Source of the DNA: Deltaproteobacteria bacterium
Lineage (GTDB): Bacteria > Myxococcota > Kuafuiibacteriia > Kuafuiibacteriales > Kuafuiibacteriaceae
Reading direction: 5' to 3'
Assembly: GCA_040218735.1 (NCBI GenBank)
Contig: JAVJQW010000017.1
Location: forward strand, 415,416 to 479,415
DNA: 64,000 bases
Shown here: one piece after another, positions 2,488 through 56,400 of the stretch
Layout: every line of letters begins with the position of its first letter
Position numbering within the stretch: the stretch's first letter is position 1
Program-made: the position numbers and the translations under genes
Notes under the pieces: model-generated
Databases searched by the model: none
What the model saw: only the letters and a program-made list of their open reading frames with translations
What the model was told of the DNA's origin: nothing

Positions 2488-2541
2488 GCGGCCCCTTCTA
2501 CCACCCTCGCCCCGGGGCGCGCGTCATTGCATGATCGCGGG

Positions 2542-3279: not shown

Positions 3280-3280
3280 G

Positions 3281-10991: not shown

Positions 10992-11183
10992 GGACGGCCC
11001 ACGACAAAAGCAAACGCCACGCCAGCCGCGCGACGCCGTTCGTTGTGTGTCGTCCCCCCGGGGGTTGGCGCCCCCGCCTTTGCAGTCGGTGACTTGAACC
11101 GCGACAGCGATGTCGCGTCGACCGAATCCTCGACAGGATACGGACCACGCGACGCACTTCGCCTGGTAGGATCGGCTTCGGTT

Positions 11184-26438: not shown

Positions 26439-26474
26439 GCGCGACCTGTGACGGTGCGAGGAGTGTCGAGTTCG

Positions 26475-37300: not shown

Positions 37301-39340
37301 CTCACCGCGAAGATTACCGAGACGCGCCTCCCGAGCGAGCGACTCGATCTCGACGCCGTCCAGCGGCGCTGCGCAGAGCGCCGCGACGGCGAAGCGCAAT
37401 ACGCGACGCTCGCCGCGCGCGGCGCGGAGCTTGGCCCTGCGTTCGCCGGCCTCCGGGAGATCCACCGGCGCGACGGCGAGGCGCTCGGGCGCATCGAAGC
37501 CCCCTCCGCCATCGTCGACGAGCTCGACGCGTACGGCTTGCACCCCGCCTACCTCGACGCTGCGGTGCAGACGTTCTGGAGCGCGATCCCCGACGCCGAT
37601 CTCCCGGAGCGCGGTGGTTACCTCCCCGTCTTCGTGGAGACGCTCGAGGTCACGACGACGCGGGCGGCCTCGGGTTGGGCGCACGTGGTCGTGCACGACG
37701 CCGATGCCAACTCGGTGCGCGCGGACGTCACGCTCTACAACGACGATGGGCGCGCCGTGGCGCGGTTCGAAGGTCTGCGATTCGGACGCGCCGATCAGAC
37801 GGCGACCGAGCTTCGCCGGCTGTTGCGCACGGCGGTCGCTCAGCTGCGCTGGAGCGAAGCCAAGCCCGCGAGGAGCGCGCCGACCGGCACGTGGCGCATC
37901 GTCGGGGAGTCGGACGCGGTCGCGACGTGGCTCGCATCGCGCGGGGCGCAGGTCCACGCCGACGGGGATTCGACCATCCTCCTCACCGACGACGTCGAGA
38001 CCTCGCAGCTGCTCGCCGCAGCGCGCGAAGCGTCGAGCGCTTCGAACGTGTGGCTCGTCGGTCGGGACCGTCCCGCGCACGCGGCGGCGGCGGCGTTCCT
38101 CCGCGCGGCCTCGGTGGAGCGTGCGTTTGGGTTGCGGATCGTCGAGGTCGAGGACGAAGCGGACCTCGTGCGGGCGCTCGACCACGGCGCAGACCACGTT
38201 CGGGTGCGCGACGGACGCGTGCAGTCACCTCGCCTCGAGCGCACGCCGCTGACGCCGAACGACGAACCGCATGACGACGGGACGTTCGTCATCACCGGAG
38301 GGCTCGGCGCGATCGGGCGCGCGGTCGCGGAGCACCTCGTCGATCGCGGTGCAACCCGCGTTGCGCTCGTGAGCCGCTCACCCGACGACGGGTTTGCCGC
38401 AACGATCGGCGCCGAACACTTCATCGCGGACGTCGCGGACCGCGACGCCCTCGCGAAGGTGTTCGAACGCTGCGGCCCGGTGCGCGGCGTCTACCACGCG
38501 GCCGGTGTCCTCGACGACGCCCCCGTCGAACAGCTCGACGACGACCGTATCGCTGCCGTTCTCGCCGCGAAGGCGCGCGGTACCGAGAACCTGGATGCGC
38601 TCGTCGGGGACGGGCGCCTCGTCGTGTTCTCCTCCGCGGCGGCCCTGTTCGGCGGCCCCGGCCAGGCCGCGTACGCCGCGGCGAACGCGTACGCCGACGC
38701 GGTCCTCCGCCGCCGCCGCGCCGCCGGGCGCCCCGGCCTGTCGATCCAGTGGGGCCCGTGGGCGGGCGGCGGCATGGCGAGCGCGACCGGCGAAGTGGGC
38801 GCGCGGCGCGCAGCGGCGTTCGGGCTACGGAGCGTCGCACCCGACGCGGCGTTGGCGCTCATGGATCGCCTAGAGGCGGAGGATGCGCCCGTGATCCTCG
38901 CGGCCGACATCGACTGGGCGACATTCAACGCACGCCGCGCCGACCCCCTTACGGCGCACCTCGCGGGCGCCAAACCGAGCCACACCCGCGACGAAGTCCT
39001 CCTCACTCGCATCGCCGAGGCTCCCCCGGCGGCGCGACGTACGCTGTTGACCGAGCTGCTGACGAAACAGCTGAGCGAGGTCCTGGAGCTCCCGCGCGAT
39101 GCGACCATCGACGAGGGCGCCGGCCTCTTCGACCTCGGCATGGACTCGATGACCGCGGTGGAGCTCACCGAACGTGTCTCGGCGACGCTCGGCCGCCCTC
39201 TTCCTTCTACGCTCGTGTTCGACAATCCTTCGGTCGGAGCAATCGCGGACCACGTGCTGACGACGTTCGAGCCGCAGACGACGAACGACCCGTCGGAGGA
39301 CGAGCTGATCGCGATGTTGGAGCAAGAGCTCGATGGCTGA
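34379..39340 (+). CDS. Type I PKS module 2: KS-AT-DH-KR-ACP
   Basis: GTG overlaps the previous TGA; short docking helix; DTACSSS; AT TENAQP, GHSVG, YAFH (malonyl-type); [12 protein letters not shown] and [10 protein letters not shown]; KR LDD, YAAAN; ACP GMDS. Confidence 0.96.
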
Positions 39341-42300
39341 ACACGACGGCAAAGAGGTGCTGCGACGCGCCCTCGCCGAGCTCAAACGCCTCAAGGCCGA
39401 GAACGCCGAGCTACGCCGTGACCGCTCCGAGCCGATCGCCATCGTCGGTATCGGCTGCCGCTTCGCGGGCGGCGCGAACGATCCCGCCTCGCTGTGGCGC
39501 GTGCTCGAAGAGGGCCGCGACACGATCCGCGAGGTCCCCGCGGACCGGTGGTCTATCGACGACTTCTACGACCCCCGCCCCGGCGTCGACGGCAAGATGT
39601 ACACGCGCGGGGGCGGTTTCATCGACGGCGTCGACCAGTTCGACGCGGCGTTCTTCGGCATCACCCCGCGCGAAGCGACGAGCCTCGACCCGCAACAACG
39701 CATCCTCCTCGAAGTCACCCACGAGGCGCTCGACCACGCGGGCATTCCGTCGACCGCGATCCACGGCAGCCGCACCGGCGTGTGGGCCGGCGTCAGCAGC
39801 AACGACTACCTGCAACTCCTCTTGCGCGACGGCTCCGAGTCCGACGCCGGCTACACACTCACCGGGGTGGTCCCGAACCTCGCGGCCGGGCGTGTCGCGT
39901 ACGTGCTCGGCGCGCACGGCCCGACGCTCACCGTCGACACCGCGTGCTCCTCCTCGCTCGTCGCGACGCACCTCGCCGTGCAGAGCCTTCGCCGCGGGGA
40001 GTGCGACGTCGCGCTCGCGGGCGGCGTCAACGTCATCCTCGCGCCCGAGCCGACCATCGCGTTCTGCAACCTGCGCGCGATGTCACCCGAGGGGCGCTGC
40101 AAGACCTTCGACGCAAACGCCGACGGCTACGTCCGAAGTGAAGGCTGCGGGGTCGTCGTGCTCGAGCGGCTCTCCGACGCGGTCGCGAAGGGCCATCGCA
40201 TCGTCGCGGTCATTCGCGGGAGCGCGCTCAACCACGACGGCAAGAGCAGCGGCCTCACGGTCCCGAACGGCGCCGCGCAGCGAGCGGTCATCGAAGCGGC
40301 CCTCGCCGACGGTGGCGTGAACGCGAGTGACGTCGGCTACCTCGAAGCGCACGGCACCGGAACCCCCCTCGGCGATCCAATCGAGGTCCGCGCGGCGAAC
40401 GCGGTGTACGGGGAGAGCGGCTTCAGGATCGCTTCGCTCAAGACGAACTTCGGACACACAGAAGCAGCGGCGGGGGTGCTCGGGCTGATCAAGGCCGCGC
40501 TGATCCATCAACACGGCGCGGTGCCACCGCACCTGCACTTCTCGAAGCTCAACCCGAAGATCGATCTCGGCGGCGCCCGCATCGTTCCGGAGGGCGCCGC
40601 GCACGACGGACGCATGACGGCCGTGTCCTCGTTCGGCTTCTCGGGGACGAACGCCCACGTCGTGCTCGAAGCCGCGCCGCCCGCGCCGGTCACGACACCC
40701 GCGCAACGTCACGCGTACGCTCTCCCCCTCTCGGCGCGAAGCGAAGCCGCGCTCGCGGAGACGTGCGCGCGCTTCGCCGACCGAATCGATCGCGAGCCCG
40801 AGGATGTCTACGACGTCGCCGCCACCTCCGCGCTCCGAAGGGCCGCGCACCCGCACCGCGTAGTCGCCGTCGGTCGGAACGCCGACGAGATCACGACCGC
40901 GTTGAGGCGGCGCGTTTCGAAGGGACAACACCGCGAAACGCCCGAGGGGCGCGCGGGTCCGCGGTCTGCGATCGCATTTGTGTACTCGGGTCAGGGGACG
41001 CAGTGGACGGGCATGGGGGCCGCGCTCCTCGAACGTGAGCCCGTGTTCGCGGAGGCGTTTCGCCGCGCGGCGGACGCGCTCGCCGCTCACGGCGTCGAGG
41101 ATCTCGAACGGAAGATCACCACCGGCGACCTCGCTGCGACCGAGCTCGCACAGCCTGCGATCTTCGCCGTGCAGTACGCGCTCACCGCGTTGCTCGCCGA
41201 GTGGGGTGTTCGTCCGGACGCCGTCGTCGGGCACAGCGTCGGCGAGCTCGCCGCGGCCGTCGCGTCGGGGCGTATGTCGCTCGAGTCCATCGCGCGGGTG
41301 ACGGCGCTGCGCGCGCGCCGAATGCAGGAAGCGACCGGGCTCGGCCGCATGGCGGCGGTGGAGCTCGGCGAGGCCGCGGTACGCGACGCCATCGCCGGCG
41401 AGGCCGTGGCGATCGCCGCCCTCAATGGACCCGCTTCGGTCGTTATCGCCGGAGCGTCGGACGCGCTCGACCGCGTCGTCGCGAAGCTCCGCGCACAGCG
41501 AGCCGCGGTGACGTGGCTCGACGTCGACTACGCGTTCCACAGCCCCCAGATGGCACCGCTCGCCGCGCAGCTCGAAGCGGAGTTGGGTGCCCTCGATGTC
41601 GCCGCGGGCGATGTGCCGTTCTACTCGACGGTGAGCGGAGCCCGGGAGAACGACGCGCTCGACGCCACGTACTGGCGCCGCAACGTCGAGGGCACCGTAC
41701 GCTTCGCGCCTGCGATCGACGCGATGGTCGCGGACGGCATTCGCACTTTCGTGGAGGTCGGATCGCACCCCGCGCTCTTGCGCTACCTCGCCCGCGACGG
41801 TGTCACGGCGATGCGCACGCTCCGACGCGGCGAGGACGAGGCGGCCTCGATGATGCGCGCCGCCGGTGAGCTGTTCGTCCACGGCGCCGAGGTGGACTGG
41901 GCGCAGATCTACCCCGAGTCCGCCCCGGTCGATCTTCCGGCCTACCCCTGGCAGCACCAGCGCTACTGGCGACCGGCGCCGGTCGGCGCCCCCGCCGCGA
42001 AACACCCGCTGCTCGGTACGCGGCGCGAGGAAGACGGTCGCACCGTCTTCGAAGGACGGATCGATCCCGCCGCGACCCCGTACCTCGACGACCACCGCAT
42101 GTACGACGTCGTTGTGTTCCCGGCGGCGGGCTACGTGGAGCTCGCGCGCGCAGCCGCCGCGGCGGCATTCGGCGGGCCGCAGTCGATTCACGACTTCGAA
42201 GTCCGCGCGCCGCTGATCCTCGATCGACCGCAGCAGGTCCGCGTCGCCGTAGCGAAGGACGGCGCGATCGAGATCGCGAGCGACATCGTGCACGTCCGCG

Positions 42301-45300
42301 CGCGCGCCGCGAAGGCCGGTCCCTCGAAGACTGCCACCCAAAGTAGCGCCGCGCCCGACGCCGTCGACGCCGCCGAGGTCTACGCGGCGGGTGCTGCGGT
42401 CGGCGTCGGCCTCGGACCGCGTTTCACCGTGCTCGCTCGAATCTGGCGCGACGGTCGAGACACCGTCGCCTCGGTGCGCTCCATCGAAGATGACGGACAC
42501 GGCGTCCACCCCGTGGTCATCGACGCGTGCCTCCAGGCCGCGATGGCGTCGAGCGGCGACGTGGATCGCGGCCTGATGCTCCCGGTCTCGATCGGCGCGG
42601 TGGAGATGAACCGCGAAGCCGGACGCGCCGTGCAGGCCCGCTTCTCACCGCGCCGCAAAGACACCGACGGCTTCACCGGAGACGCCGTGCTCATCGACGG
42701 CGATGGCGTCGTGGTCGTGGCGATGCACGAGATCCACTTCCGACGCGCGCCGAAGGACGCGCTCCTCGCCGCGCGGGCGCGCGCCGTCGCCTCGTTGCTC
42801 TACACGCGCGCGTGGGTCGAGGCTCCGAGCTCGGACGCCGAGCGGGGAGACCAGCGGTTCCACGTCCGCGGCGACGACGCGCTCGCCGCTCGTCTGAACG
42901 GCGGTGCGCTCGAAGACGCGACCGACGTCGTGCTCGTCGCGCGCGAAGTGTCGCCCGACGACTTCCTCACGGTGCTCCGCGCCCGCCCGCCCAGGCTGTG
43001 GATCTTGGGCTCCGATCGCGACCCGGCCGCCGCCACCGCAATCGGGCTTGCACGCACCGCCCGCCTCGAACACGCCGAGGTCGAGGTTCGTATCGTCGAC
43101 GGTGGAGACGTCGTCGACGAGCTGCGCCGCCCCGGCGCCGAGCAAGAGATCCGGCTCGACGGCGAACGCCGCGTCGCACGCCTCGCGCCGCTCGCCATAG
43201 CCTCGGGCACGGTGGACCTCTCTGGTGTCCACCTGATCACCGGCGGCCGCGGCGCGCTCGGCGTCGCCACCGCACGCTGGCTCCTGAGTCGCGGAGCGAA
43301 ACGGGTCGTGCTCGCGAGCCGGCACATCCACGAGCCGCCGATCGCCGGCGTCGAGGTCCGTGCGCTCGACGTCACCGACGGCGACGCCGTGCGAAAGCTC
43401 CTCGAAGAGCTGCGCCCCGACACGATCTTCCACGCGGCCGGTGTCCTCGACGACGCGCCGCTCGAGGCGCTCACTCCGGAGCGCATCGAAGCCGTCGTCG
43501 CCCCCAAGTCCGCCGTCGAGCACTTCGCGGCGAGCGGCGCGGACCTCGTGCTCTACTCCTCGGTGGCGTCGCTCGTCGGCTCCCCCGGTCAGGCGGCGTA
43601 CGTCGCGGCGAACACGTACCTCGACGCGTTCGCCGCGAGCCACGAAGGCCCCCACCGAGTGCTGAGCGTCGCGTGGGGCCCGTGGGCCGGCGACGGCATG
43701 GCGGCCGACGTCGCGGAAGCGGCGCGGCGGCGCGGACTCGAACCGCTCCAGGCCCCCGACGCGTTCGCAGCGCTGGAGATGTTGCTCGCGAGCGACGTCC
43801 GCCACGCCGCCGTCGCGCACCTCGACGCCGCGGCCTTCGTACGTGCGTTCGGCGCGCGTCGGCCCTCGCCGCTCTCAGACCTCGCGCCCGTCACGGACGC
43901 CGCGCTCGCACGACGCCTCGCGGAGGCCGACGACCCGGAAGCGGTCGCCGCCGCGTACGTCGAAGATCAAATCCGCGACGTGCTCGGCCTCGACGCCGTC
44001 GACCTCGAAGAGGACCTCACCTCCGCGGGCATGGACTCGTTGATGGCGCTCGAGCTCCGCGACGCCCTTGAACGCGACCTCGGCCACGCGCTCGCGCCGT
44101 CGGTGTTGTTCGATCACCGTACGGGCCGCGCGCTCGCGGAGTTCGTCGTCGCGCAGGCGTCGAAGACCCCGGTCAAGCGTCGTTCGATCGTCCCTGACCC
44201 CGCGAACGCCTACGCGCCCTTCCCGCTGAACGACGTGCAGGAGGCGTACTGGATCGGGCGCGGCGGGGCGCTCGAGCTGGGCGGGATTTCTTGCCACTAC
44301 TTCGGCGCGTTCGCGCAGCGCGGCCTCGATCCCGACCGCCTCGCCGAGGCGTGGGTGAACCTCGTTCGACATCACCCCATGCTGCGCGCGGTCGTCGACG
44401 AAGACGGTCGGCAGCGCGTGCTCGAGGCGCTGCCGGACTACGCCGTCCCGATCGTCGACCTGCGCGAGGCATCGAGCGACGAGATCGAATCGACGCTCAC
44501 CGCCACCCGCGAAGAGATGTCGCACCAGATGTTCGACACGTCGCGCTGGCCGCTGTTCGACGTCCGCATCTTCCGGCTCGCCGACGAGACGCGCCTCTTC
44601 ATCAGCTTCGATCTCCTGATCCTCGACGTCTTCTCGTTCGTCACGCTGCTCGCCCAGTGGCGGCACGTGTACGAGGGGGGCGCGCTGGAGCCCGTCGGGC
44701 TCACGTTCCGCGACTACGTCCGGTACGAACACGCCGAGCGCGAGAGTGACACCTACCGTGACGCGCTGAAGTGGTGGCGCGAACGCACGAAGACGCTCCC
44801 GCCCGCTCCGGACCTCCCGCTCGCCAAGAGCCCCCGCGCGATCGAGCGCCCCCACTTCGTGCGCCGCACCGCGAAGCTCTCCGCCGAACACTGGCGACAG
44901 CTCGTCGCGCGCGCGAAGGCGGCCCAGGTGACGCCCTCGATGGCGGTGTGCGCCGCCTACGCAGAGGTCATCGGACGCTACAGCCGCGGCGATCGGTTCA
45001 CGCTCAACCTCACGCTCTTCAACCGCGCGCCGGTGCACCCCGACGTGCAGCGGGTCATCGGTGACTTCACCTCCCTGATCCTCCTCGACGTCGACCACGA
45101 AGCTCCCGCCGGCTTCGCCGACCGCGCGCAGGGCTTGCAAGCCACCCTGCGGCAGCACCTGAAACACAGCGCGGTGAGCGGCGTCCGTGTGCTGCGCGAG
45201 TGGGGCCGCACCCAGGGCCGTCGCGCCTCGGCGCCGATCGTCTTCACCAGCGCGCTCGGCCTGACGGACGACCTCCAGAACGAAGCCGACGCGACCGTGC

Positions 45301-48300
45301 GTTGGCTCGGCGAAGTCGTCGACAGCGTGTCGCAGACGCCCCAAGTGTGGCTCGACCACCAGGTCTTCGAACAATCCGGCGGCCTGTTCCTCGCGTGGGA
45401 CTGCGTCGAGGATCTCTTCCCGGCCGGGATGCTCGATGAGATGTTCGAGACGTACGTCGGCCTCCTCGAACACCTCGCCACGCACGACTGGGACGCCCCC
45501 CGCCGACCTCTCCTGCCCGCCGCGAGCCTCGCGCGCATCGAAGCGGCGAACTCGACGAAGCACGAGGTCCCGACCGTCCTGCTGCACGAACCGCTCGCGC
45601 GACGCGCAGCCGAGACCCCGAACGCCATCGCGCTCGTGACCTCGCGCCGCCAACTCACCTACGCGCAGCTCTTCACCTACGCGAACCGCACCGCCCACGC
45701 CCTCGTCGACGCCGGTGTGAAGCCCGGCGACGTCGTCGCGGTCATGACCGACAAGAACCAGGAGCAGATCGTCGCGACCTTCGGCGTGCTCACCGCGGGC
45801 GGCGCCTACCTCCCGATCGATCCCGCGCTCCCCGAAGCGCGCATCCACGACCTCCTCGCGCAGACCGGCGCGAGCGTCGTCCTCACCGAGCCGTACCTGC
45901 GCGCGTCGATTCACCTCCCCGAGGACGTCGTCGCGCTCGACGTCGAGGACCCGCCGTTCCCGAACGCGAGTGAAGCGCCGCTCCCTACGACGCGGACACC
46001 GACGGACCTCGCGTACGTGATCTTCACCTCCGGATCGACCGGCCGTCCGAAGGGCGTGATGATCGATCACCGCGGCGCGCTCAACACGTGCCTCGACGTG
46101 AACGAACGCTTCGGCGTGAAGGCCGGCGACCGCGTCTTCGCGCTGTCGAGCCTGTCCTTCGATCTGTCCGTCTACGACGTCTTCGGCACCATCGCCGCGG
46201 GCGCGACGATGGTCATCCCCGACGACTGCGGGATGCGCGACCCGGACCACTGGCACGAGCTGATGGCGCGCGAGAACGTGAGCGTGTGGAACTCGGTGCC
46301 CGCGCTGCTCGGCATGTACCTCGAGTACGTCGGCGGCGAGTCGCTCCCGGTGCCGGACTCACTCCGCCTCGCGATGTTGAGCGGCGACTGGATCCCGCTG
46401 GAGGTTCCGCCCGAGCTCTGGTCACGACGCCCCGGCGTCGACGTCGTGAGCCTCGGCGGCGCGACGGAGGGTTCGATCTGGTCGATCGCCTACCCGATCG
46501 AGCGCATGGACCCGGCGTGGAAGAGCGTCCCCTACGGGCGCGCGATGAAGAACCAAACGTTCTACGTGCTCGACCGCGACTTCGAGCACTGCCCGACGTG
46601 GGTCGTCGGCGACCTCTACATCGGCGGCGTGGGCGTCGCGATGGGTTACTTCGGCGATCCCGAGCGCACCGCGAAGCAGTTCGTCACGCACCCGCGCACC
46701 GGCGAGCGCCTCTACGCGACGGGCGACCTCGGGCGCTGGCGACCCGACGGCCACATCGAGTTCCTCGGGCGCGAGGACAACCAGGTCAAGATCCAAGGGC
46801 ACCGGATCGAGCTCGGTGAGATCGAGAGTGTGTTGCGCGAGCACGACGCCGTCCGCGAGGCCGTCGTCCAACCGCAGAAGGCGAAGACCGGCGAAACGCA
46901 GCTCGTCGGCTACCTACTCTGCGACGACGACGCACCGCCCGACACGGATCTCCGCGCGCACCTCGGCCGACGCCTCCCGGCGCACATGGTGCCGAAGGTG
47001 TACGTCACGCTCGACGCTTTCCCGCTCTCCGCGAACGGCAAGGTCGATCGCAAGGCGCTCCCCGCGCCCGACGCCGCGCCGCGCGCGGTGGTCGAGCCCC
47101 GCACCGAGCTGGAAGCCGCGATCCTCGACGCCTGGCGCGACGTCCTCGGCCTCACCACGATCGGCGTCGACGACGACTTCTTCGACGTCGGCGGCTACTC
47201 CCAGCTCGCCGTCCGACTCACGCTCGAGCTGCGCGCGCGCCTCGGCGTCGAGATCCCGATCCGAGCGCTCTTCGACACACCGACCGTCGCCGCGCTCGCC
47301 GCGCGCCTCGAAGGGGACGTCGCCGCTCCGACCGTCGCCGCCGGCGACGAGGACGTCTACACCCGCTACGCCCGACGCGGCATCGGCCTGAGGCTCGCCG
47401 CGATCCGGACCGACAAACACTACGTTCGTGCTTCGGGGAACACACTCGAGTACGAACGCGACGGTCGGCGCGTCGCAGTCCTCGACATGGTCGGCGGCTT
47501 CGGCTCGACGATCTTCGGCCACAACCACCCCGAGCTCACGGCGCTCATGCGTCGCATCTCGAGCGAGGGCACCCCGGCGCACGCGCAGTACACGAACAAC
47601 GTCTGGGCGGGGCGACTGTGCGAAGCGCTGTCGGAGCGGCTGCAGGCCGCGACGCAACGGAGCTTCGTCGTCACGCTGGTCAGCACGGGCACGGAGGCCG
47701 TCGAAGCCGCGATCAAACACGCGAAGCTCGAGTACCAGACACGCGTCGCGCGGCTCTTGCGCACGCTCGAACGCGAGGCCGCCCTCGCGATGAGCGCGAC
47801 GCTGTCTCCCGAGGTCACCGAGGAGGCGCGTTCGCTCCTCGGCGACGTCCACGACGTCCCGAGCCTCGTTACCGCTGCGCGCCGACACGCCGAGGCGATC
47901 CTCGAACGGCCGCCCGTCTTCCTCGCGCTCGACCACGCGTTCCACGGCCTCACCTCCGGCGCGCTGTCGCTCACCGCCGCGGAGGACTTCCGCGCGCCGT
48001 TCGCGCCGTTCGGCGTGCAGACCCACCGCATCGGTCAGGCGCCGAGCCAGCTCGAAGCGCAGATCGAAGCGCAGACCTCGGACCTGTTCGCGGTCGGCGT
48101 CGACGCCGACGGACGAGTCACCCTCCGTCGGCGCGCGTTCACGACGATCGCCGCGTTGTTCGTCGAGCCCATCCAGGGTGAGGGCGGCATCCGACCGCTG
48201 GAGGCGGCGTTTGTCACCGCGGCGCAGACGCAATCCTCGCGGTGCGGCTTCCCGCTGATCGTCGACGAGATCCAGTGCGGCATGGGACGCACCGGCCGCT

Positions 48301-50006
48301 TCACCGGCGCCGAGCGCGTCGGGCTCGCCGGCCATTACTACACGTTCAGCAAGAGCCTCGGTGGTGGCCTCACGAAGGTCGCCGCGATGGCCGTCGAGGA
48401 GCGGCGCTACCACGAAGACTTCGGCTACCTGCACGGCTCGACGTTCGCCGAGGACGCCCCCGGCAGCCGCGTCGCGCTCGCAGCGTTGCAGCTCCTCGAC
48501 CGCGACGACCTCCTCGCCGCGTGTGAGACGAAGGGCGCTCTGTTCGCCGAGAAGCTCCGCGCGCTGAAGACGAGGCACCCCTCGGTCATCGAAGACGTCC
48601 GCGGCGCCGGGCTCATGCTCGGCGTCCAGATCGCCGCGCAGGACGACTCCCCATCCTACGTGCTGCGTGCGGTGTCGCGCAGCGACCCGGAGATGTTCAA
48701 CCAGCTCATCGCCGGGTTCCTGCTCAACGAACATCACATCCGCATCGCGCCGACCAAGACGCGCAACACGATTCGGTTCCTCCCCTCCGCGTACGTCACG
48801 GAGGACGAGATGGACCGCGTCGTCGCCGCCTTCGAGCAGGTCTGCGAGGTCGTCGAGAACGTCAACGTCGGCCGCCTGCTGCGACACCTCGTCGTCGACG
48901 ACGTCGACCCCGCCGACGTGATCACCGATTGGCGAGGCCGGTACCCCGAGCTCGCGGACGAGGAGCCGCAGCCGGGCGACCGCCGCGTCGCACACATCGC
49001 TCACCTCGAAGACGTCGAAACCACCCTCCTCGCAGAGCCGTCACTCTCAGAGGTCCCGCTCGAACGCCTCGAACCCCTCCTCGGCCGCCTGTTCCGCTTC
49101 ACGCGCCCCGCGGTAGGCCAGCGGATGCGCATCACGACCAAGACCGGCGAGACCGTGCACCTGTCGCTCCTCGGCCTCGTCCTGACCAGCCGGATGTTCG
49201 AGTCGATGATGCAGACCTCGGAGCGCGGCACCGTGCTCGACAAGATCGAGGAGGCCCTCGACGTCGCCATCGATGGCGGCGCGTCCGTGGTCGGCTTCGG
49301 CGGGTACACGTCGATCGCCACCCTCAACTGCACCGCCGTCGCGACGACGCGCGCGGCGCTCACGTCCGGCAACGCGTACACCGTGGTGCTTGCCGTGGAG
49401 GGCGCCCGACGCGCCGCCGCGGAGGCCGGCGTCGATCTCGCGAACGCCACGGTCGCGGTGGTCGGCGCCAAGGGCAACATCGGCTCTATCGCCGCCCGGC
49501 TGATCGGCCCGGCCGCCGCACGCATCGTGTTGATCGGACGCGACGCCTCCGACGCACGACTCCGCTGCATCGCCGAAGACCTCGACAACGCCGTCGTGAG
49601 CGATCGTATGAAGGACCTCGCGGCGTGCGACGTGGTCATCACGTGCACCAGCGCGTCCGTTCCGGTGATCCGCCCCGAGCACCTCTCGGATCGCGTGCGG
49701 GTGATCTGCGACGTCGCCACCCCGAAGGACGTCGACGAATCGGTCCGCGCCGCGTTCCCGAAGCTGCGCCTCCTCTCCGGAGGCCTCGCGCGACTCCCGG
49801 GCGACGCGGGCCGTCAGCTCGTCGGCACCCGCCTCCCCGTCGACCACGTGTACGGCTGCGTCGCCGAGACGACGTTGCTCGGCGCGGCCGGCTACACCGA
49901 CAACTTCTCGTTCGGTGATCTCGACCTCGACCGCGTCGAGACCATCCGACGGCTCGCCACCGAGCACGGCTACGACGTCGGCGTCGTGGAGCAGGACGGA
50001 AAATGA
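39333..50006 (+). CDS. Hybrid PKS-NRPS: KS-AT-DH-KR-ACP-Cy-A(Cys)-PCP-aminotransferase III-acyl-ACP reductase-like, 3557 aa
   Basis: KS/AT(YAFH)/DH/KR(LDD)/ACP motifs; Cy FPLNDVQEAYWIGR, DLLILD, SQTPQVWLDHQ; Cys-type A domain (DLSVYD, WNSVP, LSGDWIP, SLGGATEGSIWS); PCP GGYS; aminotransferase DEIQCGMGRTG, SKSLGGG; reductase GGYTS, TSGN, GAKGNIGS, GCVAET. Confidence 0.95.
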   Translation: MAEHDGKEVLRRALAELKRLKAENAELRRDRSEPIAIVGIGCRFAGGANDPASLWRVLEEGRDTIREVPADRWSIDDFYDPRPGVDGKMYTRGGGFIDGVDQFDAAFFGITPREATSLDPQQRILLEVTHEALDHAGIPSTAIHGSRTGVWAGVSSNDYLQLLLRDGSESDAGYTLTGVVPNLAAGRVAYVLGAHGPTLTVDTACSSSLVATHLAVQSLRRGECDVALAGGVNVILAPEPTIAFCNLRAMSPEGRCKTFDANADGYVRSEGCGVVVLERLSDAVAKGHRIVAVIRGSALNHDGKSSGLTVPNGAAQRAVIEAALADGGVNASDVGYLEAHGTGTPLGDPIEVRAANAVYGESGFRIASLKTNFGHTEAAAGVLGLIKAALIHQHGAVPPHLHFSKLNPKIDLGGARIVPEGAAHDGRMTAVSSFGFSGTNAHVVLEAAPPAPVTTPAQRHAYALPLSARSEAALAETCARFADRIDREPEDVYDVAATSALRRAAHPHRVVAVGRNADEITTALRRRVSKGQHRETPEGRAGPRSAIAFVYSGQGTQWTGMGAALLEREPVFAEAFRRAADALAAHGVEDLERKITTGDLAATELAQPAIFAVQYALTALLAEWGVRPDAVVGHSVGELAAAVASGRMSLESIARVTALRARRMQEATGLGRMAAVELGEAAVRDAIAGEAVAIAALNGPASVVIAGASDALDRVVAKLRAQRAAVTWLDVDYAFHSPQMAPLAAQLEAELGALDVAAGDVPFYSTVSGARENDALDATYWRRNVEGTVRFAPAIDAMVADGIRTFVEVGSHPALLRYLARDGVTAMRTLRRGEDEAASMMRAAGELFVHGAEVDWAQIYPESAPVDLPAYPWQHQRYWRPAPVGAPAAKHPLLGTRREEDGRTVFEGRIDPAATPYLDDHRMYDVVVFPAAGYVELARAAAAAAFGGPQSIHDFEVRAPLILDRPQQVRVAVAKDGAIEIASDIVHVRARAAKAGPSKTATQSSAAPDAVDAAEVYAAGAAVGVGLGPRFTVLARIWRDGRDTVASVRSIEDDGHGVHPVVIDACLQAAMASSGDVDRGLMLPVSIGAVEMNREAGRAVQARFSPRRKDTDGFTGDAVLIDGDGVVVVAMHEIHFRRAPKDALLAARARAVASLLYTRAWVEAPSSDAERGDQRFHVRGDDALAARLNGGALEDATDVVLVAREVSPDDFLTVLRARPPRLWILGSDRDPAAATAIGLARTARLEHAEVEVRIVDGGDVVDELRRPGAEQEIRLDGERRVARLAPLAIASGTVDLSGVHLITGGRGALGVATARWLLSRGAKRVVLASRHIHEPPIAGVEVRALDVTDGDAVRKLLEELRPDTIFHAAGVLDDAPLEALTPERIEAVVAPKSAVEHFAASGADLVLYSSVASLVGSPGQAAYVAANTYLDAFAASHEGPHRVLSVAWGPWAGDGMAADVAEAARRRGLEPLQAPDAFAALEMLLASDVRHAAVAHLDAAAFVRAFGARRPSPLSDLAPVTDAALARRLAEADDPEAVAAAYVEDQIRDVLGLDAVDLEEDLTSAGMDSLMALELRDALERDLGHALAPSVLFDHRTGRALAEFVVAQASKTPVKRRSIVPDPANAYAPFPLNDVQEAYWIGRGGALELGGISCHYFGAFAQRGLDPDRLAEAWVNLVRHHPMLRAVVDEDGRQRVLEALPDYAVPIVDLREASSDEIESTLTATREEMSHQMFDTSRWPLFDVRIFRLADETRLFISFDLLILDVFSFVTLLAQWRHVYEGGALEPVGLTFRDYVRYEHAERESDTYRDALKWWRERTKTLPPAPDLPLAKSPRAIERPHFVRRTAKLSAEHWRQLVARAKAAQVTPSMAVCAAYAEVIGRYSRGDRFTLNLTLFNRAPVHPDVQRVIGDFTSLILLDVDHEAPAGFADRAQGLQATLRQHLKHSAVSGVRVLREWGRTQGRRASAPIVFTSALGLTDDLQNEADATVRWLGEVVDSVSQTPQVWLDHQVFEQSGGLFLAWDCVEDLFPAGMLDEMFETYVGLLEHLATHDWDAPRRPLLPAASLARIEAANSTKHEVPTVLLHEPLARRAAETPNAIALVTSRRQLTYAQLFTYANRTAHALVDAGVKPGDVVAVMTDKNQEQIVATFGVLTAGGAYLPIDPALPEARIHDLLAQTGASVVLTEPYLRASIHLPEDVVALDVEDPPFPNASEAPLPTTRTPTDLAYVIFTSGSTGRPKGVMIDHRGALNTCLDVNERFGVKAGDRVFALSSLSFDLSVYDVFGTIAAGATMVIPDDCGMRDPDHWHELMARENVSVWNSVPALLGMYLEYVGGESLPVPDSLRLAMLSGDWIPLEVPPELWSRRPGVDVVSLGGATEGSIWSIAYPIERMDPAWKSVPYGRAMKNQTFYVLDRDFEHCPTWVVGDLYIGGVGVAMGYFGDPERTAKQFVTHPRTGERLYATGDLGRWRPDGHIEFLGREDNQVKIQGHRIELGEIESVLREHDAVREAVVQPQKAKTGETQLVGYLLCDDDAPPDTDLRAHLGRRLPAHMVPKVYVTLDAFPLSANGKVDRKALPAPDAAPRAVVEPRTELEAAILDAWRDVLGLTTIGVDDDFFDVGGYSQLAVRLTLELRARLGVEIPIRALFDTPTVAALAARLEGDVAAPTVAAGDEDVYTRYARRGIGLRLAAIRTDKHYVRASGNTLEYERDGRRVAVLDMVGGFGSTIFGHNHPELTALMRRISSEGTPAHAQYTNNVWAGRLCEALSERLQAATQRSFVVTLVSTGTEAVEAAIKHAKLEYQTRVARLLRTLEREAALAMSATLSPEVTEEARSLLGDVHDVPSLVTAARRHAEAILERPPVFLALDHAFHGLTSGALSLTAAEDFRAPFAPFGVQTHRIGQAPSQLEAQIEAQTSDLFAVGVDADGRVTLRRRAFTTIAALFVEPIQGEGGIRPLEAAFVTAAQTQSSRCGFPLIVDEIQCGMGRTGRFTGAERVGLAGHYYTFSKSLGGGLTKVAAMAVEERRYHEDFGYLHGSTFAEDAPGSRVALAALQLLDRDDLLAACETKGALFAEKLRALKTRHPSVIEDVRGAGLMLGVQIAAQDDSPSYVLRAVSRSDPEMFNQLIAGFLLNEHHIRIAPTKTRNTIRFLPSAYVTEDEMDRVVAAFEQVCEVVENVNVGRLLRHLVVDDVDPADVITDWRGRYPELADEEPQPGDRRVAHIAHLEDVETTLLAEPSLSEVPLERLEPLLGRLFRFTRPAVGQRMRITTKTGETVHLSLLGLVLTSRMFESMMQTSERGTVLDKIEEALDVAIDGGASVVGFGGYTSIATLNCTAVATTRAALTSGNAYTVVLAVEGARRAAAEAGVDLANATVAVVGAKGNIGSIAARLIGPAAARIVLIGRDASDARLRCIAEDLDNAVVSDRMKDLAACDVVITCTSASVPVIRPEHLSDRVRVICDVATPKDVDESVRAAFPKLRLLSGGLARLPGDAGRQLVGTRLPVDHVYGCVAETTLLGAAGYTDNFSFGDLDLDRVETIRRLATEHGYDVGVVEQDGK

Positions 50007-51298
50007 ACGACGACCAGCCGTTGAAGCGCCTCGCCAAGGGGCTCGGCCGCCGCACCCTCGTCACCGCGAAGCTCGCAGGCCGCGTGGGCCTGAAGTACGC
50101 GCGGCGCGGCGCGAAGGACGACGCGGATCCGAAGGCCGTGGAGCGCGCGATCGCTACGGTGAAGGAGCTCGGTGCGCTCAAGGGCCTCACGATGAAGGTC
50201 GGGCAGATGGCGAGTTACCTGCCGGGCGTGATGCCGCCGGAGGCGCAGAAGGTGTTTGCGTCGCTCCAGTCCGAATCGACGCCGATGGCGTACGAGCAGA
50301 TCGCTCAGGTCGTCACCAAGGAGCTCGGCCGGCCGATCGACGAGCTGTTCGAGTCGTTCGAAGAGACCCCGATCGCGGCGGCGTCGATCGGCCAGGTGCA
50401 CCGCGCGCGCTTCGAAGGGCGCGAGGTCGCGGTGAAGGTCCAGTACCCCGAGATAGAAGAGCTGATCCGCAGTGACCTGAAGCTCATGGGAATGCTCACG
50501 AAGATGATGGTCGTCGGCACCCCGAACGACGGCGCGGCGATCGCCGAAGAGCTGCGATCGAGAATGCTGGAGGAGTGTGACTATACGCTGGAGGCCGAGC
50601 GCCAGCGCCTCTTCAAGCGCCTGATCGAGAGTCAGGCGAATTGCCGCGTCCCCGAGGTGATCTCGGAACGCTCCTCACGGCGTGTGCTCACCACCGCGTT
50701 CGCCGAAGGGGTGAGCTTCGACGCGTTCGCGGACGCGTCGAGCCAAGAGGAGAAAAACGCCGCCGCCGTCGCCATCTTCCGCGCGACGTTCAACACGCTG
50801 TTCCGCTACGCGATCTACAACGGTGACCCCCACCCCGGTAACTACCGATTCGCCCCCGACGGGCACGTGGTGTTCCTCGACTTCGGCTGCGTGCGCGCCT
50901 TCCCCAAACAGTTCATCGACGACTGGAAGCCGATGGAGCTCGCGATGCTGAACCGCGACAAGGCGGAGCTGCGGCGCGTGTTCCCGGCGACGAACATGAT
51001 GGGGGTGCCGGAGGATCGGTTCGACTGGGACCACCACTGGGAGACGATGGAGTACGTCTGCCGGCCCTACATCGCGCCCCAGCCCTTCACGTTCACGCAG
51101 ACGTACGTCGAGGAGAGCTACGAGCGCATCCTCTTCAACAAAACCACGATGAAGATGCTGAACACCCCTCCGGAGTGGCTCCTGATCAACCGCGTCCACT
51201 GGGGGCTCAACTCCGTGCTCGGGCGGCTGAACGCCACCGCCGACTGGGGTGCGCTGTGGCGCGAATTCGTGTCGTCCGAAACGACCCCTGCGCAGTGA
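50003..51298 (+). CDS. ABC1/AarF/UbiB-family atypical kinase
   Basis: [34 protein letters not shown] overlap with the synthetase stop. Confidence 0.92.
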
Positions 51299-51328: not shown

Positions 51329-53413
51329 ATGAGTGAGGTCGTTCCGCTTCCGAGGTCCACGCCCGACGACGAGGCGCCGGATCCGATCGCCAAGGCGGTC
51401 GCGCGCGGGGTGAAGCAGCGCCGAAAGCTCGAGCTCGAGAAACGTCGTGCCGCGGTCCGCGCCGCCGAGACGACCGTCCCCGACATCGAGTCGACGGAGG
51501 GGCTGGAGGAGCTCGAAGCGCTCCTGAACGACCCGCTCGCGAAGGCTTGGCTGAACGAGGGCTCGATGTCGCGCGTCGACGTCGGGAAGGCGCGCAAGGA
51601 GGGACGGGTCGCGCCGATGCCGCGACGTAAGAAGGTCGGCGGGAAGTCGGAGAGCTCCGGAGCGCCGCCGATGGCGCGTCACGTCGACTTCGACGCGAGT
51701 GTCTTCGCTGCGCTCACGCGGCTGTTCTTCTGGGTGTGGGGGCTGACGCGTTACTTCGGCGGGATCCTCATCGACAAACTCGTCTTCCGCGACGACATCC
51801 ACCGGCGCGCGGTGCGGCTCCGCCGAACGTTGGAGTCACTGGGTCCGACGTTCATCAAGCTCGGCCAACAGCTCTCGGTGCGCGCGGACGTGCTGCCGTA
51901 CGAGTACTGCGCGGAGCTGTCGAAGATGCTCGATTCGATCGCGCCGTTCGACAGCAAGCTCGCCATCGCGGAGATCGAACGAACGACCGGGCGCAAGGTC
52001 ACCGACATCTTCGCCATCTTCGATCCGGAACCGATCGGCTCGGCGTCGCTCGCGTGTGTCTACCAGGCGATGCTCCACAACGGGGAGCGCGTCGCGGTGA
52101 AGGTGCGCCGCCCGAAGATCGGCAAACGCCTCGCCGCGGATCTTCGCGCGCTCGACTGGCTCATGGCCTACGCGGAGCTCGTCGCGTTGGTGCGCCCGGG
52201 GCTCACGCGCAACTTGAGCATCGAGCTCGTGGCGATGCTGATGGAGGAGCTCGATTTCGGGCGCGAGGCTCGTTACACCGACATCTTCCGTCGTCGCGCC
52301 AAGGAGAAGGGTCAAGACTACGTCACCGCCCCGCGCATCTACCGCGAGATCTCGAGTGAGTCTGTGATGGTCTCGGAGTTCGTTGGCGGTGTCTTCCTTT
52401 GGGAGATCCTCAACGCGCTCGACCGCGGCGACGAGGAGACCCTGAGGCAGATTCGCGAGAAGGACATCGAGCCCAAGGAGATCGCCATCGCGATGGCGGA
52501 GCTCTTCAATTGGGAGTCGATGGAGAGCCTGCTCTTCCACGCCGACCCGCACCCCGCGAACATCATCTGCAAGCCGGGGAACCAGATCGTCCTGATCGAC
52601 TTCGGTTCGTGCGGGCGCTTCTCCAGCAAGACACGCCGCCTGTTCCACCAGCTGCACCACTACATGAACAACGAGGACGTGCAGGGGATGGTGGAGTGCT
52701 CCATCTCCATGCTCGAGCCGCTCCCGCCGATCGACCTCGACCGGTTCACGAAGGAGGTCGAGAGCCTCTACTGGGAGCTCATGTACGCGTCGAAGGACGG
52801 CCACGCGGAGTGGTGGGAGAAGGCGTCGGGTGTGTTGTGGATCCGCTTCGCGGGGTTGGCGCGTCGCTACAACATCCCGATGAACCTCGACACGATGCGT
52901 CTGTTCCGCGCGACGTTCCTCTACGACACGGTGATGTTCCGGCTGTGGAAGGACCTCGACCTCGACGTCGAGTACCAGCGCTACTTCGAAAAGCTCGGGC
53001 GCCGCGCCAAGAAACGCGTCACAAAGGCCTGGAACAAACGTGCGCGCAAGGGGCTCACGAACAAGGACTACATGCAGGTCGAAGAGATGCTGCGGATGGG
53101 GAACCAGATCATCGCGCGGCTGCAGCACATCCTCGACACGCCGCAGCACAACTTCGCGAGTGTAATCGGCAAGGCGGCGTACGGCGTGTCGATGGGTTTG
53201 AAGGCCCTGATCCTCGGCTTCACGGTGCACCTGACCGCGGTGCTCGGCGTGTCGGTCTACGCGAAGGCCATGGACCACTCGATCACGATGACGGAGGCGT
53301 TCATGCGGCTCGTCGGTTCTCCGGCCTACCAGGCGGGTGTGCTCGTCGTGGGCCTGATCGTGATACGCAAGGCGCTGATGCGCTTCGAGGACATCGACGT
53401 CCGCAAGAGCTGA
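51329..53413 (+). CDS. Second ABC1/AarF/UbiB-family atypical kinase with C-terminal membrane helices
   Basis: LGPTFIKLGQ, GSASLACVYQA, VAVKVRRP, HADPHPAN, DFG, two hydrophobic C-terminal segments. Confidence 0.92.
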   Translation: MSEVVPLPRSTPDDEAPDPIAKAVARGVKQRRKLELEKRRAAVRAAETTVPDIESTEGLEELEALLNDPLAKAWLNEGSMSRVDVGKARKEGRVAPMPRRKKVGGKSESSGAPPMARHVDFDASVFAALTRLFFWVWGLTRYFGGILIDKLVFRDDIHRRAVRLRRTLESLGPTFIKLGQQLSVRADVLPYEYCAELSKMLDSIAPFDSKLAIAEIERTTGRKVTDIFAIFDPEPIGSASLACVYQAMLHNGERVAVKVRRPKIGKRLAADLRALDWLMAYAELVALVRPGLTRNLSIELVAMLMEELDFGREARYTDIFRRRAKEKGQDYVTAPRIYREISSESVMVSEFVGGVFLWEILNALDRGDEETLRQIREKDIEPKEIAIAMAELFNWESMESLLFHADPHPANIICKPGNQIVLIDFGSCGRFSSKTRRLFHQLHHYMNNEDVQGMVECSISMLEPLPPIDLDRFTKEVESLYWELMYASKDGHAEWWEKASGVLWIRFAGLARRYNIPMNLDTMRLFRATFLYDTVMFRLWKDLDLDVEYQRYFEKLGRRAKKRVTKAWNKRARKGLTNKDYMQVEEMLRMGNQIIARLQHILDTPQHNFASVIGKAAYGVSMGLKALILGFTVHLTAVLGVSVYAKAMDHSITMTEAFMRLVGSPAYQAGVLVVGLIVIRKALMRFEDIDVRKS

Positions 53414-53414
53414 G

Positions 53415-56400
53415 ATGGCTAGCAAGTTCGACGCAGCGATACGCCGGTACGCGGAAGCCACGATCCGCCACCGGATCCTCACCTCGGTCATCGCGCTCGT
53501 CGTGGTGATCGCGACGGGCCTCGGCACCGCCGAGCTCGCCTTCGACACGCGCTACCGCATCTGGTTCGAGGAAGGCAGCGACGCCCTCGTCACCTACGAC
53601 GCGCTGCTGCAGCGCTTCGGCAGCGACGACCAAGCCGTCATCGCCTTCAAGGACGACGACGGAACGCTCCTCGACAACCCGTCGCTCCTCTCGATCCGAC
53701 GCCTCACCGACGCGCTGTGGAAGGTCGAAGGCGTCAAACGCGTCGACACCCTCGCGAACTTCTCGATCGTCCGCGCGAGCCGGGTGGACCTGGAGTCACC
53801 CGCCTTCGTCGTCACGTCGAAGTACGTAGCAGCGGCGGGGGACCGCGGACAAATCGTGGTGTGGTCGACCGAGGATTGGTCGCGCCGGGAGCTCCTCGGT
53901 CACGACGGCGTCGTCGAGCACCTCGTCGCAAACGCGGCGGGTGACACGCTCTACTCGGGGGGCGTCGACCGCACCGTTCGCGAGTGGAACCTCGAGACCG
54001 GTGAGCTCGTCCACGCGTTCCGCGGGCTCGTCGAGAGCGTGAGCACGCTGGCGCTCTCACCCGACGAGGCGACGCTCTACGCTGGCTCGTACCGGGCGCT
54101 GTACCCGATCGACCTCGCGGCGAAGACGCCGCCGAAGGCGTGGACCGGGTTCGAAGACTTCGTCACCCACGTCATCGCCTCGTCGGCGGGTCTCTTCGCG
54201 GCGAGTCAGGACGTCCACCGTCTGGGGCCCGACGGTGCCAAGCTCGCGACGTTCGAGACCGACGCACGCTACGTGCACGACGTCGTGGTCGCCGGCGGGG
54301 CTGTCGTGGTCGCGACGTCGGACGGAGCGCTCCTCCGCTTCGCGGTCTCCGACGGCGCGAAGGTCGTGCTCGAACCGGAATCGAGCCTCGGCGTCCGCTC
54401 GCTCGTCGCGCTCCCCGACGGGCGCCGCGTCGCCGCCGGCATGACGGACGGGAGCGTGCGCGCGTACGACCTCGAAGGTGAGCCGCCGATCGTGACGCGC
54501 ATCCACGGCGACTGGGTCGTGGACCTGACGACCGACGCCAACGGCGTCGTCTACTCGGCTTCGCGCGACCGCAACATCGCGCAGCACAGCCCCGGTGAAG
54601 GACCACGCATCTCGGTGCTCACCGCGCACCGAGCCGCGGCGCGCCGCGTGCTGCTCGGACCGGACGAGCGCCTCTACAGCCTGGGCGACGACGGTGACGT
54701 CTACGTGTGGGCCGGCGAGCCGCTGTCGCTCGAGGCGCGTTTGTTGCGCGTGGCGCCGCGCGACGTCGCGGACGCGGTGACGCTCGAAGGGCCGGCGGTC
54801 GGGCGCCTCCGCGCCATCAACGAGTTCCGTTTCCCGGTCGAGCTGCGCGTCGGCGGTCAGAAACAAGTCGTGCACGGCGCGAAGGCGGCGGTGCTCGAAG
54901 GGCTCCCCGTCCCCGTACCGAACCCTTGCGACGACGACAGCAACTGCGGCCCCGGGCAGTACTGCGACTACGAACAGGACGAGCCGAGCTGCGTGGGGCA
55001 GACGGTCGTCGAGGCTTACCGGCCCGGGACCGAGGTGCGACTGTGGGCGGGGGAGGCGTTCCTCGACGCCGACAAGGAGACGACGATCCGCCTCCCCTCC
55101 GACGAGCCGTTCAGCGTGGGGCCCGCGACGGAGAGCCCGCTCGATCCGCGCACGCGCGTCGCCGCTCTGGTCGAGGCCTACCCACAGCCCGCGATGAAGA
55201 AAGCGCTCGAGCAGGTGCTCGGTGCGTACGCTTCGGTGGGTGATACGTTCATCTCGCCGAAGGTCGCGGACCAACTCGACGAGGCGCTCGGCGCGGACGA
55301 CACCGTCCCGCAGGAGGGTCGTGAGTTCCTGACCACGTTGGAGCAGGCGAAACTCAGCCCGCTCCGACTCCCCACGCAGCCCTTCCGTCTCGCCGAGATG
55401 GAGTACCACATGATGCGCGCGCCGAACCCACCGGCGCTCGGCGCGGTGCTCGACGACAACGGCGACACCACGATGATGATCGTGTCGCTCCACGAGCCGC
55501 CGCCCGAGGAAGCGCTCACGCGGCCCTTCGCGGTGCGCCACGCGATCGAAGATCTCACCGCGCAGGAACGCGCGGAGACCGGGCACGAGTACCACGTCAT
55601 CGGCGGGACGATCATGGACACGTGGCTCGAGGACTACGCGCGGCGCGACCTCGAACAGCTCGGCCCGTTGTTCCTCGCGGTCGTGGCGCTGCTGCTCGGC
55701 GTCGTCTACCGACGCATCTCCGGGGTGCTCGTCCCGCTGGGGCTGGTCGGCCTGGCGGTCATCATCGCGACGGGCTCGGCGGGGTGGTTGGGCGCTTCGC
55801 TCAACAACATGACCGTCGCGGTGCCGCACGTGATCCTCGCGTCGTGCATCGGCGACGCGGTGCACATCTTCAACGCGTACGTGGATCGTGTGCGCGGAGG
55901 GCTGACGCCGCACGAAGCGACGGTCGAGGCGATCAGCGCGAACTTCGCGCCGTGTCTGTGGACCAGCGCCTCGACCGCGATCGGGTTCTTCTCGCTGTCG
56001 ACCAGCCCCATCCAACCCGTGCGTGCGTTCGGGTGGATGGCCGGCATCGGCGTGGTCATGGCGTTCCTCCTCAGCGTGACGGTGCTGCCCGCCATCACGG
56101 CGACGCTGCCCGCGCCGAAGAAGAAGGCGTCGGCGTCCGGCGGTGGCGGCTTCGACGCGTGGATCGACGACAAGCTCACGACGCTCGCGGGCGGCGTGAA
56201 CCGCTCGACAGGCGCGATCGTCTTCCTCGCTGTCTTCTTCCTCGGGCTCGCGGTGTACGGCCTCACGAAGGCGGAGATCGACACCAACGATCTGAAGTTC
56301 TTCGCGGAGGAGGCGCCGTTCCGTCAGGGCGCGGACTTCGTGGAGGACAACATCAGCGGCTCGTACGCGCTGCAGCTCATGGTGGACCTCGGCGGACAGG

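Follow-up and report, generated by a model that had tools for sequence, protein, structure and literature searches.

An aminotransferase–reductase didomain fused to the end of a hybrid polyketide–peptide synthase is predicted to release a primary amine

We analysed a 64,000-nucleotide stretch of DNA, referred to here as the window, from a deltaproteobacterium of the family Kuafuiibacteriaceae (assembly GCA_040218735.1, contig JAVJQW010000017.1, positions 415,416 to 479,415). It encodes a hybrid polyketide synthase–nonribosomal peptide synthetase (PKS-NRPS) whose last polypeptide, the product of synthase gene 3, ends in a class-III pyridoxal phosphate (PLP)-dependent aminotransferase (AMT) followed by a reductase related to cyanobacterial acyl-ACP reductase (AAR; ACP, acyl carrier protein). 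This didomain probably off-loads the hybrid assembly line reductively and gives a lipophilic primary amine, a 4-aminomethyl-thiazoline. The analysis shows which domains are present and in what order, that their catalytic residues are intact, and that the fusion is real and recurs elsewhere. Release chemistry sets the end group of a product and often its activity, and the C-terminal amines of peptide natural products have been called rare, and their machinery elusive, in a published account. The features of synthase gene 3 on which the argument rests are as follows.

39333..50006, + strand: synthase gene 3, KS-AT-DH-KR-ACP-Cy-A-PCP-AMT-AAR-like reductase, 3557 aa, a single uninterrupted open reading frame (ORF)
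44250..45569, + strand: heterocyclisation (Cy) domain, from PDB sequence matches and the DLLILD motif
44610-44627, + strand: DLLILD motif of the Cy domain (DxxxxD form), replacing the condensation histidine motif HHxxxDG
45570..47102, + strand: adenylation (A) domain with a cysteine-type pocket (FDLSVYD, WNSVPA, LSGDWIP, SLGGATEGSIWS)
47118..47309, + strand: peptidyl carrier protein (PCP), residues 2596-2659, Pfam PP-binding, with the phosphopantetheine serine of GGYS at 47199-47201
47190, + strand: PCP motif GGYS
47349..48899, + strand: class-III PLP aminotransferase domain of the CrmG/TamH/PigE type, from Pfam, NCBIfam, PDB search and model
47517, 47685 and 47940, + strand: AMT motifs GHNHP, TGTEAVEAAIK and FHGLT
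48165, 48264 and 48351-48353, + strand: AMT motifs EPIQGEGG and DEIQCGMGRTG and the lysine of SKSLGGG
48351..48353, + strand: Lys3007, predicted PLP Schiff-base lysine, SKSLGGG being aligned on AKAIGGG of CrmG
48981..50003, + strand: AAR-fold thioester reductase domain, from NCBIfam, PDB sequence search and model
49293, 49362 and 49452, + strand: reductase motifs GFGGYTS, TSGNAYT and VAVVGAKGNIGS
49464..49484, + strand: nucleotide-binding motif GAKGNIG, GxxGNIG being kept in relatives
49710 and 49857-49859, + strand: reductase motif DVATPKDV and the cysteine of YGCVAET
49857..49859, + strand: Cys3509, predicted acyl-accepting catalytic cysteine, aligned to the catalytic cysteine of AAR

A sequence-only reading of the window had proposed that the assembly line ends in this pair in place of a thioesterase (TE) or a canonical reductase (R) domain. 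All twelve motifs that it quoted lie where listed above within the one ORF, including the lysine codon at 48351 and the cysteine codon at 49857, an agreement far beyond chance. Pfam placed KS, AT, DH, KR, carrier, Condensation-type, AMP-binding, carrier, Aminotran_3 and Shikimate_DH along the 3557-aa product in that order. The thioester reductase (TR) domains of assembly lines are usually of the short-chain dehydrogenase/reductase (SDR) type. By Pfam, the ORF contains no thioesterase family and, after residue 2659, no SDR-type terminal reductase family, its SDR-type matches (KR, Epimerase and adh_short) being confined to residues 1298-1452. Since none of the genes downstream encodes a synthetase, the assembly line ends at the aminotransferase–reductase pair, and the proposed replacement of TE and canonical R is borne out.

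The aminotransferase domain matches Aminotran_3 at residues 2697-3170 (1.3e-59), and its closest solved relative is CrmG (PDB 5dds, 9.5e-81), which it resembles over the full length, including a long helical insertion that it shares with aldehyde-aminating enzymes. A model of the didomain (pLDDT 94.0, pTM 0.90) superposes on CrmG with a TM-score of 0.90 on the target (Foldseek). CrmG is described as converting a bipyridyl aldehyde to an amine in caerulomycin biosynthesis. The nearest solved relative of the domain is therefore an enzyme that aminates a heteroaromatic aldehyde; CrmG is, however, monofunctional and free-standing, whereas the AMT examined here is fused to a reductase within a synthase.

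The C-terminal domain is matched by Shikimate_DH at residues 3366-3473 (4.4e-11) in Pfam and by AcACP_reductase in NCBIfam (TIGR04058, 1.5e-25, 90.2 bits against a curated cut-off of 449.7). Both halves of the didomain also match the PigE profile (NF053554, 263 bits against a cut-off of 850) with their order swapped, the C-terminal domain covering profile positions 52-334 and the AMT positions 492-729. Among PDB sequences, phmmer found the best matches in cyanobacterial AAR (6jzq, 2.7e-17, chain residues 38-335) and PigE (4ppm, 5e-14). YGCVAET is aligned on FACFAE of AAR with cysteine on cysteine, and the C294S entry 6jzz has serine at this position. Because a Foldseek search with the whole didomain was dominated by the AMT half, the reductase half (the last 368 aa) was modelled from an alignment with 60 free-standing relatives (pLDDT 92.7) and searched separately; AAR 6jzy was matched at E 6.9e-24 with TM-scores of 0.76 (query) and 0.81 (target). 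The domain has the two-subdomain AAR fold with the aligned cysteine at the junction. Failure of the C-terminal domain to align with AAR would have undone the sequence-only reading; the alignment extends over ~290 residues with the catalytic cysteine in register, and the model superposes on AAR.

The catalytic residues were followed in two sets of sequences. In the query and 30 relatives of megasynthase length (n = 31), all 31 sequences have the PLP lysine as well as the nucleotide motif, and 30 have the catalytic cysteine, the exception (P0012) ending before that position. Alignment A1 comprises 61 sequences, 60 of them free-standing relatives; in the numbering of the didomain, K335 and C837 do not vary in 61/61, and G706, G709 and N710 are likewise invariant.

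The module in front of the didomain had been read as supplying a thiazoline-type substrate, and this assignment also held. It has the order Cy-A-PCP. The Cy domain matches the cyclisation domains of Irp2/HMWP2 (2.7e-82) and EpoB (4.2e-80) as well as PchE and BmdB in the PDB, and the best chain not named a cyclisation enzyme, PvdL, follows at 1.9e-19. The pocket stretch of the A domain is nearest to that of cysteine-activating BmdB (1.1e-35), followed by the alpha-methylserine enzyme 6lta and PchE; FDLSVYD, WN.VPA, LSGDWIPL and SLGGATE.SIWSI are common to it and BmdB. Its ten-residue specificity code would be DLYNMSLIWK, which we take, from the Stachelhaus table, to be a code for cysteine. All parts of a thiazoline-forming module (Cy, cysteine-type A and PCP) are present, cyclisation is predicted, and the substrate tethered to the PCP is most likely a 2-alk(en)yl-thiazoline-4-carbonyl thioester.

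An erroneous joining of two genes during assembly could mimic such an ending. A 99%-identical protein of equal length is encoded in another assembly, and relatives at 58-59% identity have the identical full architecture. In sequencing run X2, from another study, one contig of 69,933 bases spans positions 46900-50100 with 39 differences and no gaps, and contigs from three further runs span 46900-48291 (X3, record 9), 47117-47747 (X5, record 19) and 46997-47528 (X7, record 25). The contigs of all four runs, each from a different study, cross the PCP-AMT boundary at ~47349, and none of them has a listed insertion or deletion. The fusion is not an assembly artefact, because contigs of four studies bridge the junction without indels. 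Short joints in the run contigs were considered as rearrangements and rejected; their sides measure just 20-27 letters and were read as fragments of other organisms. For the interval 46900..50100, contigs 90-99% alike were present in runs X2-X9, which come from several studies and are labelled as sponge, aquaculture, biofloc and aquatic metagenomes; marine or saline samples therefore apparently contain close relatives of the source organism. No RNA run is listed among those that contain the locus.

From these domains we infer each chemical step of product release, which cofactor and amine donor it would use and what product would result. A domain of the fatty acyl-AMP-ligase type would load the starter, three PKS modules would extend it, and Cy-A-PCP would add and cyclise cysteine to give 2-alk(en)yl-thiazoline-4-carbonyl-S-PCP. 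Three off-loading steps are proposed because of the analogy to TamH (see below): the acyl group would pass from the PCP to Cys3509, freeing the holo-PCP; hydride from NAD(P)H would reduce it to thiazoline-4-carbaldehyde; and transamination at Lys3007-PLP with an amino-acid donor would give the primary amine, released as a lipophilic 4-aminomethyl-thiazoline. The order of the two domains in the polypeptide, AMT before reductase, is the reverse of the proposed order of reaction, as it is in TamH. A fusion in cis would make sense as a way of trapping a labile alpha-heterocyclic aldehyde, which is an argument from reasoning and not a result.

The closest functional parallel is TamH of Pseudoalteromonas tunicata (PtTamH), which acts in the biosynthesis of tambjamine YP1. 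Together with TamA it is described as turning fatty acids into amines by reductive release followed by transamination of the aldehyde, and as an enzyme that binds PLP, prefers glutamate as donor and has a putative catalytic Cys887 (PMC9594044). A later preprint restates that TamH uses NADH to release the chain bound to TamA and that acyl-CoA is not accepted (10.1101/2025.08.11.669332). By its description, PtTamH has on one chain a class-III transaminase at the N-terminal end and an AAR-like thioester reductase at the C-terminal end, with a PLP lysine, a catalytic cysteine and a GxxGxxG motif, and converts a carrier-bound acyl thioester to a primary amine (PMC9594044). The same elements were found here, namely a transaminase with PLP lysine at the N-terminal side, a short linker and an AAR-fold reductase with the cysteine and GxxGxxG, and the likeness in domain order that the sequence-only reading had drawn to TamH agrees with the published account (PMC9594044). 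The two differ in that PtTamH is described as a free-standing protein of 941 aa working in trans on a C12 fatty acyl chain held by the ACP of TamA (PMC9594044), whereas the present didomain is not free-standing: it occupies residues 2673-3557 at the end of the 3557-aa PKS-NRPS, directly after the PCP of the Cy-A-PCP module. PP_2782 (PpKTFusion)/KecF is likewise described as a transaminase-AAR fusion for which reductive release from an ACP and amination of a polyketide are proposed, and its best structural neighbours, as here, are CrmG and AAR (PMC10829540); by the same account it differs in being free-standing and encoded in a type II PKS (koreenceine) cluster, with a reductase activity that is itself proposed (PMC10829540). 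PigE, of the MAP branch of prodigiosin biosynthesis, is described as containing both domain types (4ppm, PMC8341465), and both halves of the present didomain match its profile and structure; in PigE, however, the reductase comes first and the protein is free-standing (PMC8341465), and the score of 263 obtained here stands against a cut-off of 850.

Amines are also formed at the ends of assembly lines by separate enzymes. In aquimarin biosynthesis the thioester is described as being converted to an aldehyde and then to a primary amine by the TR domain of AqmG and by AqmH, which differs from the present case in pairing a terminal TR domain with a separate transaminase protein (PMC12426817, PMC10028931), and actinobacterial polyketide alkaloids are described as arising likewise by reductive release and subsequent transamination in trans (PMC5365063). 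Two further candidates for a precedent were set aside: in the myxofacycline pathway the embedded aminotransferase is described as working on keto groups and release as proceeding through a TE, and chalkophomycin proved irrelevant.

Three other readings of the didomain have to be weighed against reductive off-loading to an amine. Release might end with reduction alone, giving the aldehyde, an imine or a cyclised form of it, with the AMT serving a structural role in dimerisation or acting on another substrate or on another carbonyl of the chain. The class-III aminotransferases are described as obligate dimers (PMC9594044), and the embedded aminotransferases of iturin- and myxofacycline-type lines are described as acting on keto groups of tethered chains; yet here all three PKS modules contain KR and DH by Pfam, so that no keto group is predicted on the chain. 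The PLP lysine and other invariant AMT residues are moreover retained throughout the 61 aligned sequences, and the domain is CrmG-like from end to end, insertion included. We regard release without amination as unlikely. It is very unlikely that the acyl group, once on the cysteine, is released as a primary amide that receives its nitrogen from the AMT, or is released through a re-oxidised aldehyde or imine. Such chemistry would be akin to that of the TAD, described in 2024 as a putative terminal amidation domain (10.1101/2024.10.28.620694). According to the preprint, TADs (CarI/VatR/HcaD) share with the present domain the AAR fold, an invariant cysteine and a position in cis closing a terminal NRPS module, where they replace the TE, and the source of their nitrogen is given as unknown (10.1101/2024.10.28.620694); the carmabin-pathway TAD is, in addition, the next structural neighbour of our reductase model after AAR (E 4.9e-15, TM-score 0.67, 15-16% identity). 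Against this stand several differences. The TAD is absent from the 17 phmmer matches at E up to 1 among PDB sequences, where AAR and PigE lead. It is described as lying directly behind the PCP and as giving amide products by a chemistry proposed to be non-reductive or redox-neutral, and the accessible text of the preprint mentions no aminotransferase (10.1101/2024.10.28.620694); in the present protein the AMT lies between the PCP and the AAR-fold domain. The TAD loop is given as Asp-Asp-Ser-Gly-Pro, as against DVATP here, and the AMT-AAR pair of TamH is described as yielding an amine.

Finally, the didomain might serve another carrier in trans, for example by converting the starter acyl-ACP to a fatty amine, while the thiazolinyl chain leaves by a different route; TamH and KecF are both described as working in trans on separate carrier proteins. 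This seems highly improbable, given that no other release enzyme was found among the ORFs scanned from 7813 to 63789, that the didomain of NRPS-type relatives always stands behind a carrier domain at the C-terminus, and that it is single-copy in the 11.6-Mb source genome.

Reductive off-loading to a primary amine remains the reading that we prefer, and several points weigh against it. The NCBIfam scores lie far below the equivalog cut-offs, and the domain is therefore a relative of AcACP_reductase and PigE and not an equivalog of either. The likeness to TamH is drawn from the published description of PtTamH, which is not named among the 120 matches listed from the 90%-cluster database. The chemistry proposed for this protein and its cis-fused relatives is predicted from sequences and models. 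To our knowledge, the thioesters on which AAR-type reductases have been shown to act are fatty or simple polyketide ones, and heterocyclic aminoacyl thioesters are not among them. The TAD precedent implies that NRPSs may end in AAR-fold domains whose chemistry is non-reductive. On balance, the observation made in the sequence-only reading is confirmed, and its interpretation is supported at every step testable in silico.

A full scan of 1.84 billion representatives returned 789 proteins at E up to 1e-30, and the 90%-cluster database contained 1240 proteins of free-standing length at E up to 1e-50. Among 175 pooled didomain sequences, 125 are shorter than 1100 aa and free-standing by size; the 50 of at least 1100 aa (query and a near-copy included) comprise 25 NRPS-type and 14 PKS-type proteins and 11 with other extensions. 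The Cy-A-PCP-AMT-AAR ending is present in 24 of the 25 NRPS-type sequences, the remaining one (P0032, 1463 aa) starting within the A domain. The didomain ends at most 41 residues from the C-terminus in 27 of the 30 relatives of megasynthase length, among which two Nocardia proteins bear it N-terminally. In three proteins of ~1990 aa (P0029, P0030 and P0145) the AMT-AAR didomain is N-terminal and is followed by ~1100 residues, which in P0029 and P0030 contain PEP-utilising/PPDK-type domains according to precomputed Pfam lists.

A FastTree phylogeny (SH-like support, midpoint-rooted for drawing) was built from 171 didomain segments, leaving aside the near-copy P0002, the truncated P0012, one sequence matching a single domain and one filtered out. 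The 23 NRPS-fused sequences form one side of a branch with a support of 100, and 13/13 PKS-fused sequences fall inside a set of 44 around them (support 98). A single origin of the NRPS-fused group is favoured by this topology, though not proven. Within the family of the source organism, two of 19 other genomes contain a match, which is part of a fusion in one (61% identity) and free-standing in the other. Both domains were present in 3 of 80 loci (L001-L003) in a scan of genome contigs, and a scan of metagenome contigs with generic aminotransferase patterns gave only three such loci as well (L088-L090, 33-39% identity), all of them outside the close NRPS-fused group.

The sequence-only reading had further suggested that such an ending was new to NRPS termination, and this stands in part. 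In the literature consulted, mostly open-access main texts whose supplements might show such architectures, no publication was found in which an NRPS or PKS ending of the carrier-aminotransferase-AAR type is given a function. Already in print are AAR-fold endings of NRPSs (the TAD), the chemistry of the free-standing enzymes and the architecture itself, since a 2013 survey of assembly-line PLP domains lists one Burkholderia protein as CP-PLP1-SDH (CP-Aminotran_3-PF01488), with no function given. The chemistry and the domain types are thus known, and the cis-integrated, recurrent arrangement behind a thiazoline-forming module is undescribed. If the proposed chemistry is true, the carrier-transaminase-reductase ending would constitute a third release logic beside the TE and the SDR-type R domain, one that traps a labile alpha-heterocyclic aldehyde in cis. 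It might serve as a portable part for engineering polyketides and peptides with a terminal amine, and it offers a comparison for the chemistry of TAD domains; its recurrence points to a class of products that nobody has isolated.

More tentatively, Cy-A(Cys)-PCP-AMT-AAR may be a dedicated off-loading cassette of single origin present in several bacterial phyla that makes undescribed lipophilic 2-alk(en)yl-4-aminomethyl-thiazolines, whose amine could attack the cyclic thioimidate carbon to give a 2-alkyl-imidazoline with a free thiol; in some lineages a built-in PilZ or receiver domain might switch the synthetase, which would point to a role in signalling or as an envelope lipid rather than as an antibiotic. 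We consider this extended picture possible rather than probable.

Regulatory domains were seen in several relatives. In P0013 a PilZ domain (residues 1760-1854) lies between the A-domain core and its C-terminal subdomain, and PilZ also appears in the Pfam lists of P0004, P0006, P0009-P0011 and P0015-P0017, relatives with the identical ending. P0008 has a response-regulator receiver at the N-terminus of the synthetase (residues 7-119), and in L002 a gene for a hybrid receiver/histidine kinase (2116..3618) lies just upstream of the synthetase. With such PilZ or receiver domains, an NRPS would have c-di-GMP or phosphorelay sensing built in.

The window has a G+C content of ~70%, and the remaining genes considered are the following.

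10980..12773: Ser/Thr kinase gene
13974..20324, - strand: 2116-aa ORF with Pfam matches only to N-terminal TPR
23094..24290: Schlafen/AlbA_2 gene
26448..34382, + strand: synthase gene 1, fatty acyl-AMP ligase-type loading domain, ACP, KS-AT-DH-ER-KR-ACP, from Pfam domains and core motifs
~34379..39340, + strand: synthase gene 2, KS-AT-DH-KR-ACP, from Pfam domains and core motifs
50003..51298, + strand: ABC1/UbiB-type atypical kinase gene, its start overlapping the synthase stop (ATGA)
51329..53413, + strand: second ABC1/UbiB-type gene
53415..57290: WD40 repeats fused to an MMPL/RND-type transporter, 1291 aa
58977..59741, - strand: LolA-like (PF17131) gene

Synthase genes 1-3 are co-directional with overlapping ends. 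The longest ORF of gene 2 begins at 33782, and its start would be the GTG that overlaps the stop of gene 1 (GTGA, 34379..34382); genes 2 and 3 share 8 bases (39333..39340). Together with the ATGA at 50003, the GTGA and the 8-base overlap suggest translational coupling within a single operon that extends from 26448 to 51298 or beyond, of which the first ABC1 gene (50003..51298) is a probable member. The 2116-aa TPR ORF probably lies outside the cluster.

In L001, from a metagenome-assembled genome (MAG) of the Deltaproteobacteria, both ABC1 genes are kept in order (12835..17257) behind the homologous synthase, at 61% and 68% identity, with an additional ORF of 334 aa and no Pfam match between them. 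A gene for a radical-SAM protein also lies downstream of the synthase in the window. In L002, from a Gammaproteobacteria MAG, the related synthetase likewise has a LolA-like gene upstream of it (8..778, 28% identity). The LolA-like genes and the WD40-MMPL fusion hint that a lipid-like product is exported.

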